Below are positions 48,601 through 53,800 of a stretch of DNA of 64,000 bases, piece after piece. The stretch is from assembly GCA_040946965.1 (NCBI GenBank), contig JAYFRU010000001.1, positions 74 to 64,073 of the forward strand, in the 5' to 3' direction. Numbering within the stretch: position 1 is the first letter of the stretch; every line of letters starts with the position of its first letter. Below the pieces are notes generated by a model. The model worked only from the letters and a program-made list of their open reading frames with translations, searched no databases and was not told where the DNA came from. A program made the position numbers and the translations under genes. The DNA is from Burkholderia sp. (lineage in GTDB: Bacteria > Pseudomonadota > Gammaproteobacteria > Burkholderiales > Burkholderiaceae).

Positions 48601-50878
48601 GGCGCGGACCACGGTGGTCCCCGACAAGGCGATGCACGAAGCCAGCGTGGCCTACCTGAAGCAACTGGTGGCCGCCACGCTGCGCGTCTCGCCGGCGGAA
48701 ATCAGCGCGCACGAGCCGCTGGAGCGCTACGGCATCGATTCGATCCTGGTGGTGCAGCTCACCGACAGCCTGCGCCAGCATTTCGACAGCGTTGGCAGCA
48801 CCTTGCTGTTCGAGGTGCAGACCGTCGACGCGCTGGCCGAGCGCCTGCTCGCCACTGAGGCGCCGGCCCTGGCGCGGCAACTGGGCATGGAGGCCGCCGC
48901 GCCGGCCATCGAGGCACCTGCGCCGGCCACGCCGCCACCGGCGCCCTCGCCGGCATCGGAGCCGGTATCGAAACCGCAGCCGCAGCCCACGCCCTCGCAA
49001 CCGGCTGCCGCCTCGGCCGAGGCGAGCCACCCCGCAGCCCGCAGCGACGTCGCCGTGATCGGCCTGAGCGGCCGTTACCCGAAGGCGGCGGACCTGGGCG
49101 AGTTCTGGCAGAACCTGCGCGCCGGGCGCGACTGCATCGACGAGGTGCCGGCCCAGCGCTGGGACTGGCGCGAGCACTTCGACACCGAGCGCGGCCGGGA
49201 CGGGCGCAGCTACAGCCGCTGGGGCGGCTTCATCGACGGCGTCGACCAGTTCGACCCGCGTTTCTTCCGCATCCCGCCCAGCGAGGCCGAGTACATCGAT
49301 CCGCAGGAACGCCTGTTCCTGCAAACCGCCTGGCTGGCCATCGAGGATGCCGGCTACACGCCCGCGACGCTGAGCCGTGACCAGCGCGTCGGCGTGTTCG
49401 TGGGCGCGGCCAACAGCACCTACACCTTGCTGCCCAGCCACTGGTCGATCGCCAACCGCGTGTCCTTCGCGCTCGATTTCCACGGGCCGAGCCTGGCCGT
49501 CAACAGCGCCTGTTCCTCCTCGCTGACGGCCCTGCACCTGGCGCTCGACAGCCTGGCCCACGGCAGCAGCGAGGTGGCCCTGGTGGGCGGCGTGAGCCTG
49601 GTGCTGCACCCGGCGCATTTCAACCGGCTCTCGGCGCTGGGGATGCTGTCGAGCGACGCGCACAGCCGGGCGCTCGGCGAGCATGCCGACGGCTTCGTCG
49701 ATGGCGAGGGCGTGGGCGCGCTGCTGCTCAAGCCCTTGCAGCGCGCGATCGAGGACGGCGACCAGATCTACGGCGTGATCAAGGGCAGCATGGTCAACGC
49801 CGCCGGCAAGACCCGCAGCTTCGCGGTGCCCGATGCCGCCGCGCAGGCTCGCCTGGTGAGCGAGGCGCTGGCGCGCGCGGGCGTGACGGCCGACACTATC
49901 GGCTACCTGGAGGCACACAGCAACGGCGGCGAGCTCGGCGATCTCACCGAGATGCAGGGGCTGGCCGAGGCCTTCGCCGGCACGGCCGAGCGCGGCCACC
50001 GCTGCGCGATCGGCTCGGTGAAATCGAACATCGGCTATTGCGAGAGCGCGGCGGGCATCGCCGGCCTGACCAAGGTGCTGTTGCAACTGCGGCACGGCGA
50101 GCTGGTGCCGACCCTGCATGCGCGACGCGCCAATCCGAAGATCGATTTCGCCGCCACACCCTTCGTGCTGCAGCAGGAACTGAGCGCCTGGCCGCGTCCG
50201 GCCGGCCATCCGCGCCGCGCCGGCGTGTCCGCCTTCGGGGTGGGCGGCGCCTACGCGCACGTGATCGTCGAGGAGTATCTCGCGCCGGTCGCGGCGCGCC
50301 CCGAGGTGCCGGGCCAGGCCTTGCCGATCGGGCTGTCGGCGGCCAATGCCGAGCGCCTGCGCGTGGTGGCTGGGCGTCTGGCCGGCTTCCTGGAAAGCGA
50401 GGCCGGCCGCGAGGTGGCGCTGGCCGATCTCGCCTACACGCTGCAGGTGGGCCGCGAGCCGCTCGCCGAGCGGCTGGGCTTCGTCGCCGATTCGGTGGCG
50501 CAGGTGCGCGAGGTATTGCGCGCCTTTTCCGAGGAGCGCGAGACGCCGCTGCCGCTGGTGCGCGCGAGCCTGGGCCGCGGCCGCGACGGCTGGGCGCTGT
50601 TCGCCGACGACGAGGATTTCGAGCGCACCGTCGAGCAGTGGATCGCCTGCGAGAAACACGCCTCGCTGCTCGACCTGTGGGGCCGCGGTTATCCGCTCAA
50701 CTGGCGGCGCCTGCACGTCGCGCGACGGCCGCGCCGCATCGGCCTGCCGGGTTACCCCTTCGCCGAGGAAAGCTACTGGGCCCCCGAGTCGCTGCGCTAC
50801 GCCGGCGTGCTCGAGGACGAAGACGATTTCGACGCCACGCCTTTCGAGCCGGCCCAGCCGGTGGGAGAACAGTCTTGA
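30611..50878 (+). CDS. trans-AT PKS megasynthase: ACP-KS-DH-KR-ACP-KS-KR-ACP-KS-DH-KR-cMT-ACP-ER-KS-ACP-KS(degenerate)
   Basis: ATG 30611 overlaps the upstream stop (ATGA 30611-30614); AGGAA lies at 30601-30605. Domains: ACP (SYGIDS, Ser 30854-30856); KS7 (~31190-32505, Cys 31712-31714); linker with carrier-like insert; DH (LDHHRVGGRRILP, His 33404-33406); KR (34727-34765); ACP (Ser 35648-35650); KS8 (~35951-37261, Cys 36458-36460); KR (GRTVLITGGAGGLG 38465-38506); ACP (Ser 39398-39400); KS9 (~39692-40945, Cys 40178-40180); DH (His 41636-41638); KR (GGVYVVIGGAGGLG 43244-43285); C-MT (LEIGAGTGG 44576-44602); ACP (Ser 45428-45430); MDR-type ER (45716-46676); KS10 (~46763-47993, Cys 47228-47230); ACP (Ser 48740-48742); KS11 with decayed catalytic motifs (49046-50277); linker and tail. 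Confidence 0.95.
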   Translation: MTDHVAEIYRQVAAGQLSKDEALARLRQVQDAPDAGQVPVRAAAVTREAVAQALAALYAGLSKIALEAIDPLEALESYGIDSIVIAGMNRELGERFAGLSKTLFFEHRTLDSLAGLLWREHEAACRAWLAPGTAANTAVASSASPIEVAMTAAATATVAAASAEAIPAGTGETLAPASSGATHAAAADTSAWPPIAIVGLAGRYPQAGDLDAFWRNLREGRDCIVEVPAERWPLDGFYEPDPDRAIASGRSYGKWGGFLEGFADFDPLFFNISPLEAMGMDPQERLFLQSAWHALEDAGYTRDSLAECCGGRVGVFAGVTRNGFGLLGLEAWHEGSTVFSQPAFSSIPNRVSYALDLRGPSLPVDTMCSSSLTAIHEACAALHRGDCAMALAGGVNLCVHPASYVGLATGKMLSSDGRCRSFGAGGDGYVPGEGVGVVVLKPLAAALADGDRIHGAIRATSVNHGGRTNGFTVPNPAAQAELIAESLRKSGIHPRAIGYVEAHGTGTALGDPIEVSGLAQAFAPHTRERGFCALGSAKSNLGHLEAAAGIAGLTKVLLQMRHGELAPSLHAEQLNPNIDFDGTPFVVQRELAPWAEPELNLDGQARRYPRIASVSSFGAGGANAHLLVEQYQVPAAPSASAAGPQAVVLSARTPERLRAAAQALLDHLEGGGAQASPAARLSAWLVEELAAIVGVEAAAIGAREALVDLGVEILHRTRWYERVQERLNLPWSLKDFLDQGSVQQLTDSLLREHGATVAAQFPAPAAAAPALADLAHTLQVGREAMPERLALVAADPAELTAGLRGFLAGDARFPSWQGKARRGRALPARPDQAVWQAWIDARDWSQLLPAWVAGHDLPWRELSGTQGARRIGLPLYPFAAERYWVDPQSLRPRPAATATPRLHPLAQQRADGADGPAFLSRFSGAESFLDHHRVGGRRILPGVAYLEMARAAASLAGNGAAIRSLRNVVWARPIEAGADGVAVTLRLQAHQEDSWRYEALGADGGVHGQGVAGTALPAAPADLDLAALRARMQAGALGAEAFYQAYAAMGIDYGAAHRGFVQAVVGEGELLAELCLPAAVQADASAYVLHPSLMDAAFQATLGLYLLGARADAAQAMLPFALETLEIHQAPPVRAWAWVRSRGGRGGIEKFDIELCDAQGRICVRMLGFSSRVLEAPAAAPQAPAAIEAPSLLLSRHAWQEASASTAAPDPALTRRLLLVSIEPPAAWQQLGQGELLQAASARPEQACAALYTQVFARVKAWLEEKGRDTCLWQVAIAGQGVELLLAGLSGLLRSASQESRRLLGQLLILEGDEDVASLRARLDENAASPLDSLVRYREGRRETWHLLELPDDGNGNRGSEAAAAPLPWRQNGVYLLSGGAGELGLLFAEEIARRAAGATLVLTGRSALSDQRRARLDALREQGAQYRYEQVDVADRQAVTQLVERITAEYARLDGVLHIAGVLRDSYLLRKDRAAFEQVLAPKLLGTANLDHATRALDLDFFLMFSSSAAIFGNLGQADYAAANGFMDAYAAYRQAQGGRGRSLSVNWPLWRDGGMGMEAATEEMMLANTGMVAMRTASGFAALARALHSGLPQVAVMEGLAERMRQKLLAPAAASMQAAAPVASAPVAAASGPTEQADHGELVARVARGLRQMVGELLKLELDQIDIEDDLSDYGFDSITFTSFSNRINKQFGLDLIPTIFFEYPDIAGLAGHLAEAYRPALVASLVGLPAEPAQAAQARPAASASASATSATSLPAPLAPQPANQAGAASNASAPRRGVAVIGISGSFPGADGVDALWQLLEQGGDAIGEVPASRWDWRRCLPPGESEAVQARVRWGGFIDGVDRFDPLFFGISPREAELMDPQQRLLLTYAWLAVEDAGYAPQSLAGSDTGLFVGTAVGSYGSLVLQAGRSQDAYSSTSSVASIGPSRVSYFLDWHGPSEPIETACSSSLVAVHRAVQAIESGRCEAVLAGGVNTIATPEAHIAFSKAGMLSVDGRCQTFSAKANGYVRGEGVGMLFLKELAAAERDGDTIHAVIVGSAENHGGRATSLTAPNPKAQAALLKAAYTKAGFDPRQLGYIEAHGTGTELGDPIEVNALKSAFKELYQRAGAEAPGQPHCGLGSIKTNIGHLELAAGVAGIIKVLLQLRHRTLMRSLHGEQVSPYVQLEGSPFYLVQENRHWDAPRDAQGREQPRRAGVSSFGFGGVNAHVVLEEYVAPQTRAAAPAAGPVLVPLSAKNEARLREAAVRLADFAAAQAGDASVDLHDLAYTLQVGRDAMDARLGLVVSDKAELARRLRAWLNDAGTGEVLQAARGKAQKEALAAFAGDEELAGVVEGWWRNGKQAKLLELWVKGLDLDWARLQADAGRRRISLPGYPFADERYWLEPLLVESAAPTMTAPAGASEAAALCFEESWQSYRASEASVAASVRTVLCCLSDAAHQQALREAVARRCPQWQLIFLDRQAPAPLDRQGWADALRAIEPGAAAIDAVVDLRALEDAGLRRAEAVPLGLVQALGGMKTRPARLVLGGEYADELERSQLEAWIGLERSMGLALPGCQAATVLCEAGEAIDWAAWAQLLDTVLGEAAPRNLLAGRDGLRQLRVQPLAPAEAAAADLGRTVLITGGAGGLGLIFARHLAADRRCQLVLVGRSPLDDARQAAVQALQDAGSEVLYLAADVTDPAAMREVVARAKARFGGIDSVIHAAGIQHAVPLADKQPEDVRRVLDPKVRGALVLDQVLAGEPLRLVCYFSSSASVLGDFGSADYAVANRFLAAHALAREQRRARGECAGRSLAIEWPLWREGGMGVGDDAGTALYLKSSGQQLLEQAEGLAVFERLLGSNITRALVLVGERERLHRMLGLAAAPAALAAAAAVTQATAAVTLPPTLSTASLEERVSAELSALISGQVKLAPELLDAESNLADFGLDSFGLAELARALNALYGIELAPSIFFAYSSIARLAAYLLDKHRAEVEARRPEATRVDAAAVTPPQPAPIATAPAPERAPAPIALEPAKAKAPAFDGEREPIAIIGISGRFPKARDVEQMWRILAEGIDAVDEIPAERFDWRDYYGGREAQPGKTNSKWAGCLDGVDEFDPLFFEISPREALAMDPRQRLLLQESWNALEDAGYGPRQLRAGPLGIFVGVEEGDYQRVAPDLGVTSNHNGILASRLAYFLDLNGPVLAINTACSSGLVAVHQACASLLSGESDTAIAAGANLILTPEPYVGMSQTGMLSPDGRCRAFDRAANGMVPGEAVAVVVLKRWSRAVADGDPIRGLIRASGINNDGRSNGITAPNALAQASLVRQVQRAAGVAPEQIDYVVTHGTGTRLGDPVEIQALAEAFGQPADGRAYCALTSSKGNFGHTFAASGLLSLIGLVQALEHDTIPPSLHCEEDSDYIAWRDSAFQVNKQARPWPRQAKRARLGAVSAFGMSGTNAHVLVQEAPAAAARAAESPTDLVLALSAKTETALRERLLGLRDWLASPAAERCELAAVSRTLLDGRHHFAHRAAVVVANRASAIAALEHLAALDAADGPDHYLGKVARGFKGEEALRERAASWPAQPLADAAAYRARLGELAWLHCQGYAVGWSALDGLPSAARVHLPGYPFARESYWPKTRISSPAAAPVASLSTPSLPAAISVRPMLRTELSAPAQGHSQTHYAARFSGEEFFLRDHRVRGQAVLPGVAYLELAREALEARTGHAVPGGLQLQHVTWVQPLMVDASGVEARIELHRQENGEWRYEVGSGHAEGERRLHGQGFLALSSQAEPAALDLSALHGNCRASELDSAACYAAYQAVGIEYGPSFRAVQRIWVGEGQALAQLRLPAEAPADSAAYALHPSLLDGALQASIGLAMAQAAQGGEPMLSLPFALDSLVLHRPCPNETWVWIRPTPGAQSSRVRKLDLDLCDAQGCVCVALRGFSARLVAQGGAAKPSSAPVPVEAARASVPASAVATPDIASSFAPAATADAGSTTAPAATHDMALTAASGAWLPVGPTVLAPAWSVRAVDDTAEPPVPARMLLIGDAAAQRASWQRAYPPLLALDVAPSATVDELRGQLAAIGAIDELVWIAPAQDSQDPADEALLTAQAGGVLALFRLVKALLAEDYAGRRLAVTVLTRATQQVHPQDPVAPAHATVHGLVGSLAKEYPHWSVRLIDLDAQGADPAPAQCRALPAGSGESWAWRCGEWHVPELIALAEPTGGKAPAPYREGGVYVVIGGAGGLGEVWTRHLIEHYRAQVVWIGRRAEDAELRARLAALASHGPAPLYLQADAGDRQALSRARDTILQRHGRIHGAVHSALVLQDRSLARMDEATLQAALRPKLDVSLRIAQVFAADALDFVLFFSSMMSVSRAAGQGNYAAGCTFKDALAQALGRRWPGAVKVMNWGYWGSVGVVADARYQERMSRAGIGSIEAEEAMAALERLLGGPDAQLGLIKLSRAQAVEGVRADLHGERYGAALPALLPQLAARPLPPEHASRLAAAQGALPPQTMQALSLRLLGQALLGFSPDGRHLPGGGTGLALAGHYRRWYDTSLRLLAAGNWLQALPNGDYRILAAAAQDAWPEWEAARAAWLADPQQQAWAQLLEVCLRALPELLVGRRKATDVMFPNSSLRLVEGIYRGNPIADLYNHILFDAVEAYVQERLAREPRARLRLLEIGAGTGGTSAGLLQRLDRYAANIDEYCYTDLSKAFLLHAEQHYAPGRPFLRTQRFNVEEPPQEQGIAADRYDIVVAANVLHATANIRRTLRHAKAPLRAGGLLALNELGELSLLTHLSFGLLDGWWLYEDPALRLDGSPGLSAEGWERVLAEEGYAPLWRPAEECHRYGQQVLLAQSDGRVKRDVAVQAPPAALARPVEASAPAVGFDSAAASAPLVSAAAPVAVSVTAPAPAPIPAPAPQDLEQAVADHVRTLLRECIGKGLDLDPQRIEADRSFSEYGVDSILAVQLVNEINQRLGIVLQTTVLFDYSDLDALAEYLEQTHQAALRASLPVRAAVPVPTPSAAPTSQARQANTPAQPLGAAFPSAFASPAAGGRRRALISGPGQIPDLCLVAADAAAPLQPQQARVAVRASSLNFSDLLCVMGLYPNMPAYPFTPGTEASGLVLEVGSAVSTLRPGDEVVCLAQGCHATEVVCHEAQAWPKPPQLSFEQACALPVVALTMIDAFHKADLQPGDSILIQTAAGGTGLIAMQLARHYGATIFATAGSREKLDYLRGQGAQHLINYREQDFEAEVARLTGGRGVDVVINTLSGEAIAKGLRSLAPGGRYIEIAMMALKSAQAVDLSMLDSNQSFFSIDLARLIAERPRKLEQYRRELASLVEQGVLQPTVSRVFALDQLHDAYRYLQDRRNIGKVVLQVPQAAAPAAGGEAFAPAVATVAAPTNHADEPIAVIGMSGRFAHSPDLDSFWSHLAQGHDLVDTVSRWDLGPGEGSCRDGSFLDEIDRFDPLFFRMSGLEATYMDPQQRLFLEEAWRTLEDAGYAGEAVKGKLCGVYVGCTSGDYAQLFKSAPPPQAFWGNSGALIPARIAYYLDLQGPAVAVDTACSSALVAVHLACQGLRAGETELALAGGVFVQSTPGFYLAANPAGMLSATGRCHAFDESADGFVPGEGVGAILLKRLSDAIADGDQIHGVICGSAINQDGRSNGITAPSARSQERLERQVYDRYAVHPETLQMIEAHGTGTKLGDPIEYRALSQAFGHYTQREGFCALGSVKTNIGHLANAAGIAGILKILLALRHRQLPPSLHFRKGNPAIAFEGSPFYVNTELRPWPAGERAARRGAVSSFGFSGTNAHMVIEEAPAPLAARAARRRLELVALSARTAGQLREQAGRLLAYCRAQPQASLGDLAHTLLCGREHRGHRLAAVVRDLAELSRVLGAWLEHGDGSRLQLGELDEGGVREQLEQRRLGQAAIEAVREGRVERLSSVAELFAQGYKLDYAGLFGPGYRRLALPTYPFAQERYWVDDSLQRAAVPSTPAAPVMPASTPAPALAAAPVAAEAAAARTTVVPDKAMHEASVAYLKQLVAATLRVSPAEISAHEPLERYGIDSILVVQLTDSLRQHFDSVGSTLLFEVQTVDALAERLLATEAPALARQLGMEAAAPAIEAPAPATPPPAPSPASEPVSKPQPQPTPSQPAAASAEASHPAARSDVAVIGLSGRYPKAADLGEFWQNLRAGRDCIDEVPAQRWDWREHFDTERGRDGRSYSRWGGFIDGVDQFDPRFFRIPPSEAEYIDPQERLFLQTAWLAIEDAGYTPATLSRDQRVGVFVGAANSTYTLLPSHWSIANRVSFALDFHGPSLAVNSACSSSLTALHLALDSLAHGSSEVALVGGVSLVLHPAHFNRLSALGMLSSDAHSRALGEHADGFVDGEGVGALLLKPLQRAIEDGDQIYGVIKGSMVNAAGKTRSFAVPDAAAQARLVSEALARAGVTADTIGYLEAHSNGGELGDLTEMQGLAEAFAGTAERGHRCAIGSVKSNIGYCESAAGIAGLTKVLLQLRHGELVPTLHARRANPKIDFAATPFVLQQELSAWPRPAGHPRRAGVSAFGVGGAYAHVIVEEYLAPVAARPEVPGQALPIGLSAANAERLRVVAGRLAGFLESEAGREVALADLAYTLQVGREPLAERLGFVADSVAQVREVLRAFSEERETPLPLVRASLGRGRDGWALFADDEDFERTVEQWIACEKHASLLDLWGRGYPLNWRRLHVARRPRRIGLPGYPFAEESYWAPESLRYAGVLEDEDDFDATPFEPAQPVGEQS
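32632..32872 (+). other. second carrier-protein-like, serine-less insert inside the KS7 flanking region
   Basis: The insert is LSAWLVEELAAIVGVEAAAIGAREALVDLGVEILHRTRWYERVQERLNLPWSLKDFLDQGSVQQLTDSLL. The GxDS position reads G-V-E-I (Ile ATC 32747-32749). It occupies the same position within the linker as the KS4 insert. Confidence 0.5.
44395..45125 (+). other. C-methyltransferase domain 3 (core)
   Basis: LEIGAGTGG lies at 44576-44602, with VVAANVLHATANI...GLLALNE...FGLLDGWW. Confidence 0.85.
45716..46676 (+). other. in-line MDR-family enoyl reductase domain located after the ACP
   Basis: Motifs are ...VAVRASSLNFSDLLCVMGLYPNMPAYPFTPGTEASGLVLEVG..., the nucleotide-binding QTAAGGTGLIAMQLARHYGA (~46144-46164) and ...NIGKVVLQV. 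It lies between ACP (Ser 45428-45430) and KS10. Confidence 0.85.
49046..50277 (+). other. degenerate ketosynthase (KS11, probable non-elongating KS0)
   Basis: Cys is retained (TGT 49511-49513 in NSACSSS). However, HGTGT reads HSNGG (49916-49930), NIGH reads NIGY (Tyr TAT 50036-50038), GGxNAH reads GGAYAH, and the MLSxDGRCxxF motif reads MLSSDAHSRAL. Confidence 0.75.

Positions 50879-53800: not shown

Follow-up and report, generated by a model that had tools for sequence, protein, structure and literature searches.

A conserved non-elongating ketosynthase fused to LgaC precedes its intact paralogue in LgaD in a lagriamide gene cluster

The stretch of DNA considered here, referred to as the window, comprises 64,000 nucleotides of a Burkholderia sp. 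assembly (GCA_040946965.1, contig JAYFRU010000001.1) with a G+C content of about 72%, and contains a gene junction at which one ketosynthase (KS) domain, KS11, is followed directly by a second, KS12. On sequence grounds, the window is the lagriamide (lga) trans-acyltransferase (trans-AT) polyketide synthase (PKS)/nonribosomal peptide synthetase (NRPS) cluster of the beetle-symbiont type, because it shows 92% protein identity to the Burkholderia metagenome-assembled genomes (MAGs) Loki_2 and LhG_1 from Lagria beetles and 83% to the lgb cluster of Paraburkholderia acidicola ATCC 31363 (scan with one genome per species), shares the domain order around the match with both MAGs and P. acidicola, and is present nearly completely in a 2024 beetle-metagenome run (word share 0.99). 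Its four large, co-directional genes g1–g4 encode LgaA, LgaB, LgaC, and LgaD, and are followed by an acyltransferase (AT) gene, an enoylreductase (ER) gene, and the start of another PKS gene that runs off the window. The gene order lgaA-B-C-D-E-F-G and the domain strings of the published lga and lgb clusters, which represent the same locus type, are matched, including the two Gly NRPS modules, the KS-ACP-KS end of LgaC (ACP, acyl carrier protein), the KS-KR-ACP-ACP architecture of LgaD (KR, ketoreductase), and the AT and ER genes thereafter. Four orthologous clusters are compared in the following: the window and loci L001, L002, and L003, the last being the lgb cluster of P. acidicola. Domain positions were derived from phmmer, Pfam, and our own hidden Markov models (HMMs) for ACP, KR, dehydratase (DH), methyltransferase (MT), and ER domains.

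At the lgaC/lgaD junction, KS11 lies at the end of LgaC and KS12 at the beginning of LgaD, at the positions that an earlier note on this DNA had assigned to them (Table 1). The last ACP of LgaC is the sole carrier upstream of both. Between the two KS domains, our HMMs detect no ACP, KR, DH, MT, or ER, and the region is occupied only by the KS11 flank, the LgaC tail, and the LgaD leader. An AlphaFold2 (AF2) model of 49031–50875 (pLDDT 87, pTM 0.91) matches solved trans-AT KS-plus-flank structures over its whole folded length (Foldseek, 7ZM9, TM 0.90–0.93), the tail (model residues 594–615, pLDDT <50) being its sole disordered part. Because the HMM searches are empty and the model is fully superposed on KS-plus-flank structures, an overlooked carrier is excluded; Pfam agrees, and the claim in the earlier note that no carrier or other domain is encoded between 50278 and 50985 is upheld. 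Its start of gene 4 at about 50985 has to be moved, most likely to the TTG at 50875, which overlaps the lgaC stop codon and is preceded by GGGAGA 7 nt upstream. This Shine-Dalgarno sequence of lgaD is carried by the last codons of the LgaC tail, which is kept in lgb except for a 9-aa acidic insertion, and the LgaD leader is rich in Pro and Gly. The TTGA overlap is arranged identically in all four clusters, including that of the cultured P. acidicola, and the junction is therefore no assembly error; throughout, translation of lgaD is coupled to that of lgaC.

A few further features of the junction were noted. The lgaD start is a weak TTG in all four clusters. Both lgaB (30600–30614) and lgaC (50864–50878) end in EQS and a stop, encoded by GAACAGTC(A/T)TGA, and overlap the next start (ATGA and TTGA, respectively). 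Duplication of the lgaB/lgaC junction as the origin of the lgaC/lgaD junction was discarded, since nothing aligns beyond these shared 13 nt. The LgaC tail encodes the hexapeptide DFDATP, as does the LgaD leader in a different frame (17/19 nt identical, 50823–50841 versus 50900–50918), a repeat that is kept in the Lagria-symbiont clusters and absent from the LgbD leader. A micro-duplication that split a fused gene was likewise rejected as too weak, given that the 17/19-nt match is reached by 1 of 500 shuffles and that the leader motif is not kept in lgb.

KS11, the published KS5 of LgaC, has the catalytic triad Cys-His-Tyr, fixed in the window, in L001–L003, and in 11 published lga clusters; the orthologous clusters thus keep this non-elongating KS (KS0), a point that the earlier note had left to be checked. 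The active-site Cys is retained (NSACSSS, codon 49511), as that note had observed, and its reading of two substitutions, NIGH to NIGY at codon 50036 with loss of the second catalytic His, and GGANAH to GGAYAH, is correct. Its claim that HGTGT is lost stands for the loop, EAHGTGT having become EAHSNGG, but not for the catalytic His of that motif, which is still present. The loss of GRC stands in part: KS11 reads AHS at 49658–49666, but the position is non-canonical also in KS12 (PHC), and the KS11 orthologues have AHC or AQC. On this comparison, the odd GRC position is partly ancestral; the one change peculiar to the window is Cys to Ser, whereas the KS0 lesions are fixed. HSNGG, NIGY, and G(A/S)YAH vary little or not at all among the four clusters, and all orthologues share the active-site Cys, the first His, and the KSNIG Lys. 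From established KS mechanism, loss of the second catalytic His predicts that no decarboxylative condensation takes place, and because this residue is missing, KS11 should be unable to decarboxylate malonyl-ACP. The supplementary text of the lagriamide literature reports Tyr for the last His of LgaC KS5 in all 11 recovered lga clusters and calls the domain "likely non-functional".

The ratio of nonsynonymous to synonymous substitution rates (dN/dS; Nei-Gojobori, four clusters), computed at dS up to about 0.5, is 0.10–0.16 for KS11, 0.11–0.15 for KS12, and 0.07–0.11 for KS10, with 0.09–0.25 for the KS11 flank and 0.17–0.38 for the KS12 flank. The ACP preceding KS11 has a dN/dS of 0.08–0.17. KS11 and KS12 have equal numbers of polarisable changes, each showing 14 along the lgb branch and 4 along the lga stem. 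The term "decayed", used for KS11 in the earlier note, is misleading, as dN/dS equals that of KS12 and the degenerate motifs date from before lga and lgb separated and have stayed frozen. By these measures KS11 is a frozen KS0 under selection and no pseudodomain, and because purifying selection is as strong as on KS12, it still has some role. Of 118 highly conserved KS columns, KS11 deviates at about 14 and KS12 at 7, a count that we keep for comparison within orthologues only. As a proxy for non-elongating KS domains it was dropped, being confounded by clade: the elongating KS1, KS3, and KS9 score like KS2.

Identity between KS11 and KS12 is 67% for the KS domain alone and 62–65% over KS plus flank (about 578 aa), close to the two-thirds that the earlier note had estimated by eye, and all four strings that it quoted as shared are present in both. 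KS6 and KS8 are also 67% identical, so the figure alone is unexceptional. However, when 481 KSs from 159 loci are placed in a neighbour-joining tree, the orthologues of KS11 and KS12, four of each, group together to the exclusion of all others in 50/50 bootstraps, and their flanks are 58–63% identical to each other versus at most 52% to any other flank, a special relation that has no counterpart in the flanks of KS6 and KS8. Because of this exclusive clade and of a flank similarity above all others, the alignment and tree that the earlier note had suggested identify KS11 and KS12 as specific paralogues, flanks (its linkers) included. Orthologues from lga and lgb are 83–86% identical and the paralogues 61–65% in every combination, from which it follows that the tandem duplication of KS plus flank predates the lga/lgb split and that no gene conversion took place afterwards.

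KS11 is thus a conserved KS0 paralogue of KS12, attached to the donor subunit LgaC after its last ACP. In a comparison set of 155 further trans-AT loci, 75 of genomic and 80 of metagenomic origin, no KS is directly followed by a KS, an arrangement confined to the lga/lgb family. The other KS0s with a visible downstream region in these loci precede ACP, DH-ACP, or DH-KR-ACP, in accordance with the statement in the earlier note that a KS0 normally hands its chain to an ACP or a modifying domain. Ordinary trans-AT KS0s, which are common and found for example in dehydrating bimodules and before NRPS modules, are like KS11 in having a KS fold, a retained Cys, a lost catalytic His, and no expected extension. 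They differ in that a downstream carrier is present, where KS11 instead precedes another KS, and in that their usual lesion lies at the HGTGT His (CAH, CNH) and that of KS11 at the second His (CHY). The one other CHY KS found in the comparison loci, at 20619–21848 of L050 (Agarilytica sp. MAG), is an unrelated KS, 51% identical to KS11, with the same His-to-Tyr change and NIGYCES; it follows a DH-MT-ACP module, and the L050 locus ends directly after it. The published lga/lgb work already gives the KS0 status of LgaC KS5. The accessible text of the lagriamide papers makes no mention of the KS0-KS contact without a carrier, the specific paralogy, the purifying selection, or the docking motifs described below; what appears to be new relative to that text is the KS0-KS arrangement, the duplication from which it arose, the selection that maintains it, and the evidence on the function of the junction.

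Table 1. Genes and features of the window discussed in the text. Positions are window coordinates; C, condensation; A, adenylation; PCP, peptidyl carrier protein.
Feature	Position	Strand	Domains, evidence, or remarks
LgaA (g1)	829–11520	+	ACP-C-A-PCP-KS1-KR-MT-ACP-KS2-ACP
LgaB (g2)	about 11520–30614	+	C-A-PCP-KS3-DH-KR-ACP-KS4-KR-MT-ACP-KS5-DH-KR-ACP-KS6
Docking-like motifs, LgaB C-terminus (DRHSALLDQLIHRQISADEAVRLARRQEQS, then stop) and LgaC N-terminus (HVAEIYRQVAAGQLSKDEALARLRQVQ)	30522–30700	+	helix-turn-helix, across the lgaB/lgaC ATGA junction
LgaC (g3)	30611–50878	+	ACP-KS7-DH-KR-ACP-KS8-KR-ACP-KS9-DH-KR-MT-ACP-ER-KS10-ACP-KS11
Last ACP of LgaC (KS10-ACP module)	48647–48856	+	Pfam PP-binding; ACP HMM 79.6 bits
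KS11 (published LgaC KS5), non-elongating KS0	49046–50278	+	phmmer and HMM mapping
KS11 flanking subdomain (KS-AT-linker remnant), ends YWAPESLRYAGV	50279–50809	+	Pfam PF16197, PF22621, PF22336; well folded in AF2
Acidic C-terminal tail of LgaC, 22 aa, LEDEDDFDATPFEPAQPVGEQS	50810–50875	+	disordered in AF2
Translational-coupling junction	50863–50878	+	GGGAGA 50863–50868; TTG 50875; TGA 50876–50878 (TTGA overlap)
LgaD (g4)	50875–54756	+	KS12-KR-ACP-ACP
LgaD N-terminal leader, 38 aa (MKRNLNLNHDFDATPPSRD...)	50875–50988	+	no helical docking motif
KS12 (LgaD KS), Cys-His-His intact	50989–52221	+	phmmer and HMM mapping
KS12 flanking subdomain, ends YWAPAAVRYAGV	52222–52752	+	Pfam and alignment to KS11 flank
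LgaD KR	53296–53877	+	GGAGGLG, Lys, Ser, Tyr, and LRD motif present
Tandem ACPs of LgaD	54091–54684 (54091–54315 and 54463–54684)	+	Pfam, HMM

Downstream of KS12, the LgaD KR appears active from its motifs and is under selection (dN/dS 0.14–0.21), and LgaD ends without a thioesterase. The start of LgaG is found at 57.4–64 kb of the window (loading region, ACP-KS-DH-KR-ACP-KS...) and is absent from open reading frame (ORF) lists because the gene runs off the window end; long ORFs listed in other frames of this region have no Pfam matches. Elsewhere in the window, a perfect direct repeat of 3,864 bp (1761–5624 and 12221–16084, offset 10,460 bp) spans part of C, A, PCP, and most of the KS of both glycine modules, with KS1 and KS3 100% identical. 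Similarity drops abruptly at both ends of the repeat, and recent gene conversion or assembly collapse could explain it. The ER at 45773–46690 sits behind an ACP (DH-KR-MT-ACP-ER-KS), an unusual module type that is also found upstream of the nearest relatives of KS10 in Paenibacillus/Brevibacillus loci (L006, L009, L012, L014, L018). In L002, the MAG of a L. hirta symbiont, lgaC switches frame at about 6500–6650, which fits the 37-bp deletion reported in the literature to split lgaC. When metagenomes were scanned for other lga-like clusters or for a bistramide cluster, the best match was 52% identical.

How the lgaC/lgaD junction is to be understood depends on the order in which the subunits act. 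In the published order, LgaG, LgaA, LgaB, LgaD, LgaC (Florez et al. 2018, Fergusson et al. 2024; PMC6018673, PMC11134395), which according to the accessible text rests on in silico reasoning, KS6 is silent though intact, KS12 acts mid-line to make the C26–C27 unit, one LgaC module iterates, and KS11 ends the assembly line, so that KS0 and KS would be in contact only at the DNA level. The third explanation in the earlier note, that genes 3 and 4 are not consecutive in the pathway, amounts to this model. The docking motifs, the KS clades, and the erosion of LgbD go against it, and we consider it rather probable from these sequence comparisons that lgaC and lgaD are consecutive and that the order is LgaG, LgaA, LgaB, LgaC, LgaD.

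The C-terminus of LgaA (...VLSVLQAYRNGALDHAQARALL..., 11437–11517) and the N-terminus of LgaB (...LDQIIALYEAGKLSGDQVSEAFARL..., 11523–11610) share a motif, and the same helix-turn-helix motif is carried by the C-terminus of LgaB (...SALLDQLIHRQISADEAVRLARRQ..., 30522–30611) and the N-terminus of LgaC (...VAEIYRQVAAGQLSKDEALARLRQV..., 30620–30700). A strict regular expression for this motif gave too few matches and was replaced by an HMM, which matches the first 5–60 or last 1–4 residues of large PKS ORFs across numerous unrelated loci; the matches in L045 and L069 include pairs of neighbouring ORFs. According to the same HMM, the motif is absent from both LgaD termini and from the LgaC tail. 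A phmmer search of both docking peptides against PDB sequences gave no matches, including to 2N5D and 5D2E. In their sequence pattern, the LgaA/LgaB and LgaB/LgaC termini resemble the four-helix-bundle (4HB) docking domains of VirA/VirFG and MlnE, short two-helix termini of consecutive subunits that operate at split-module junctions, also after a KS (PMC11221535). The LgaC/LgaD junction is unlike the 4HB type in having a disordered acidic tail and a Pro/Gly-rich leader with no helical motif. Because matched motifs occur at the LgaB/LgaC junction and none at the LgaD termini or the LgaC tail, docking of LgaB to LgaC is the simplest interpretation. The published order disregards this match; it also creates KS6|KS12 and ACP-ACP|ACP junctions and leaves the N-terminal ACP of LgaC without a KS while the intact KS6 must idle. 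In its favour, KS2, which has Cys-His-His and is non-extending, exemplifies that intact KSs need not extend in this system.

The KS clades were examined by recording the upstream-module domains for every KS and inspecting the nearest neighbours of each lga KS. When the 25 nearest neighbours whose upstream module is complete are considered, 19 follow DH-KR-MT for KS12 and 18 for KS11, compared with a background of 47/317 (Fisher p = 4e-13); the leave-one-out precision of the DH-KR-MT clade call is 67–81%. The procedure recovers known contexts, namely KS1/KS3 after NRPS, KS4/KS6/KS8 after DH-KR, KS9 after KR, and KS10 after DH-KR-MT-ACP-ER. Lagriamide A has exactly one alpha-methyl enoyl unit, C36=C37(Me), according to the published NMR table. 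In the collinear order, the match between intermediate and KS is complete, with an unbranched saturated chain for KS6, an alpha-methyl saturated chain for KS10, and an alpha-methyl enoyl chain for KS11 and KS12. The published order gives three clashes: KS12 falls into the clade that follows DH-KR-MT and not into the DH-KR-follower clade of KS4/6/8, KS9, a follower of KR only, must on a second round accept an alpha-methyl saturated chain, and KS10 must accept an alpha-methyl enoyl chain. Furthermore, lagriamide A needs nine extensions after the second Gly and nine KSs with an intact triad are available (KS3–10, KS12), for which reason the collinear order would require no iteration. The LgaD KR would be useful at C39, which ends reduced, and counter-productive at C27, which ends as a ketone. 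In the published order, the C27 hydroxyl formed by this KR would have to be re-oxidised in lga, yet the P450 LgaJ probably only epoxidises (Fergusson et al. 2024; PMC11134395). In favour of the published order, the literature reports that KR and LgaJ are both present in lga and both absent in lgb, and an LgbD without KR would yield the C27 ketone directly.

The lgb orthologue of LgaD bears on the same question. LgbD (L003, 11872–14547) shows a clean in-frame loss of about 400 aa, corresponding to the KR and its structural subdomain. Its KS carries 5 lineage-specific changes at positions at least 85% conserved, which makes it the sole such KS among the lgb KSs, and departs from the highly conserved columns at 12 sites compared with 7 in lga, with four of the 12 belonging to the change of HGTGTELGDPIE to HGSGTDFGDALE; the HGTGT/GDPIE motif is eroded. 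LgaC and LgbC have an identical domain organisation despite the difference in product, which the authors found "intriguing" (PMC11134395). As reconstructed from the text of the paper, lagriamide B has neither the C36=C37 double bond nor the last C2 unit. A weakened last module would explain the shorter lagriamide B, and a weakened mid-line module would not be expected to be tolerated. The fit between an eroded LgbD and a lagriamide B lacking exactly the last C2 unit thus favours the collinear order. In the published order, this KS would have eroded at HGTGT/GDPIE although it is essential, and the difference between lagriamides A and B has no account at the sequence level. Acceleration of LgbD in a relative-rate comparison was rejected, the branch changes of KS11 and KS12 being equal.

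Several observations weigh against the collinear order and the hand-over that it entails. LgbD retains its open reading frame and the serines of its ACPs, a point that also favours the published order, and it shows no overall acceleration in a relative-rate test, its substitution rate being equal to that of KS11. The terminus of lagriamide B was taken from the wording of the paper and not from a drawn structure. The clade of KS7 was dropped as a discriminator of order, since the upstream modules of its neighbours match the background. KR, DH, and MT are all missing from the KS10-ACP module itself, and the product of this module must still be alpha-methylated and dehydrated, which would call for domains of the preceding module or trans-acting enzymes. 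In none of the 155 other loci does a KS0 hand over beside a KS. Both specialist models place LgaD before LgaC (PMC6018673, PMC11134395); the two orders alike rest on in silico or sequence reasoning, and the authors may have had KS-tree evidence that is given in figures only. On balance, we regard the published order as possible but doubtful.

For the junction as a whole, we give about even chances to an explanation that combines a duplicated and selected KS0, a collinear lgaC–lgaD hand-over, and KS11 as a scaffold or docking platform. In this scheme, the unit of KS plus flank that now opens LgaD was duplicated in tandem before lga and lgb diverged; KS12 kept Cys-His-His, and KS11 lost the second His to Tyr together with the GTGT loop, steps that the sequence comparisons show. 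KS6 of LgaB would extend onto the N-terminal ACP of LgaC, forming a split module without KR, by which C27, in the spiroketal, would be left as a ketone. From the last ACP of LgaC, the chain with its alpha-methyl-enoyl unit (C36=C37-Me) would then cross the subunit boundary to KS12, and LgaD (KS-KR-ACP-ACP) would add the final C2 unit of lagriamide A. KS11, itself non-elongating, would most likely serve as a dimeric C-terminal scaffold or docking platform of LgaC that brings KS12 near the terminal ACP, and would keep this ACP and the LgaD KS together where helical docking domains are lacking. Lateral KS-flank contacts occur in trans-AT KS structures, and an interaction through the conserved tail at the LgaC/LgaD boundary is conceivable as well. 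KS11 may also hold the chain transiently and reversibly on its retained Cys, in which case the ACP would possibly serve KS11 too. The scaffold or docking role is reached by elimination, because there is no precedent for a KS0-to-KS hand-over in the 155 loci. The two remaining explanations of the earlier note, a vestigial tandem duplicate kept as a structural or docking element and an ACP shared by both KSs, are thus favoured in combination: the retained duplicate and an ACP serving KS12 stand, and the structural role is the part we infer. The full chain of claims, in which the lgaC/lgaD boundary is a working hand-over, the order is G-A-B-C-D, LgaD adds the terminal C2 unit, the erosion of LgbD explains lagriamide B, and the KS0 constitutes a new interface, is tentative when taken as a whole.

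KS11 might instead be an active transacylating KS0 that takes the finished or almost finished chain from the last ACP of LgaC onto its Cys and passes it to another carrier, either an LgaD ACP or a different partner, or to water. Enacyloxin synthase offers a parallel: Masschelein and colleagues are said to have described, in 2019, a C-terminal KS0 in this system that acts in chain release. The enacyloxin KS0 (Bamb_5919) releases the chain by dual transacylation, with a stand-alone carrier and a condensation enzyme as acceptors. As in LgaC, this is a trans-AT-type line from Burkholderia in which the last PKS subunit ends in ACP-KS0 with no thioesterase, and the window has no thioesterase after LgaC or LgaD. 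The Cys, the first His, and the KSNIG Lys are conserved in every KS11 orthologue under strong purifying selection, which speaks for such an activity. However, KS11 would be terminal like the enacyloxin KS0 only under the published order, no carrier follows it directly, and neither a stand-alone carrier protein nor a condensation enzyme is found in the window, including downstream of LgaD, or in the accessory gene list as given in the published text. Transfer to an LgaD ACP would moreover bypass KS12 and render the LgaD KS and KR pointless, and we therefore regard this activity as unlikely. A functionless relic of duplication, retained because clean removal is unlikely, would fit a KS that has no downstream carrier, lacks one catalytic His, and departs from about twice as many conserved columns as KS12, but is very improbable given a dN/dS like that of working KSs at dS of about 0.5, the absence of frameshifts and stops in four lineages plus, from the published text, 11 clusters, a substitution count equal to that of KS12 on each branch, and a well-folded AF2 model.

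A KS0 that is fused ahead of its own live paralogue and maintained by selection at a subunit boundary is unique among the 481 KSs of the 159 loci. Both the subunit order and the difference between lagriamides A and B are experimentally tractable, since the lgb producer is culturable. If the collinear order is true, the published biosynthetic order of an ecologically important antifungal would be corrected, module iteration and re-oxidation at C27 would no longer be needed, and the difference between lagriamides A and B would receive an explanation at the sequence level. Should KS11 act as proposed, a dead paralogue of the acceptor KS, carried on the donor subunit, would replace helical docking domains and represent a new kind of interface between PKS subunits, a docking solution that may be useful in PKS engineering.

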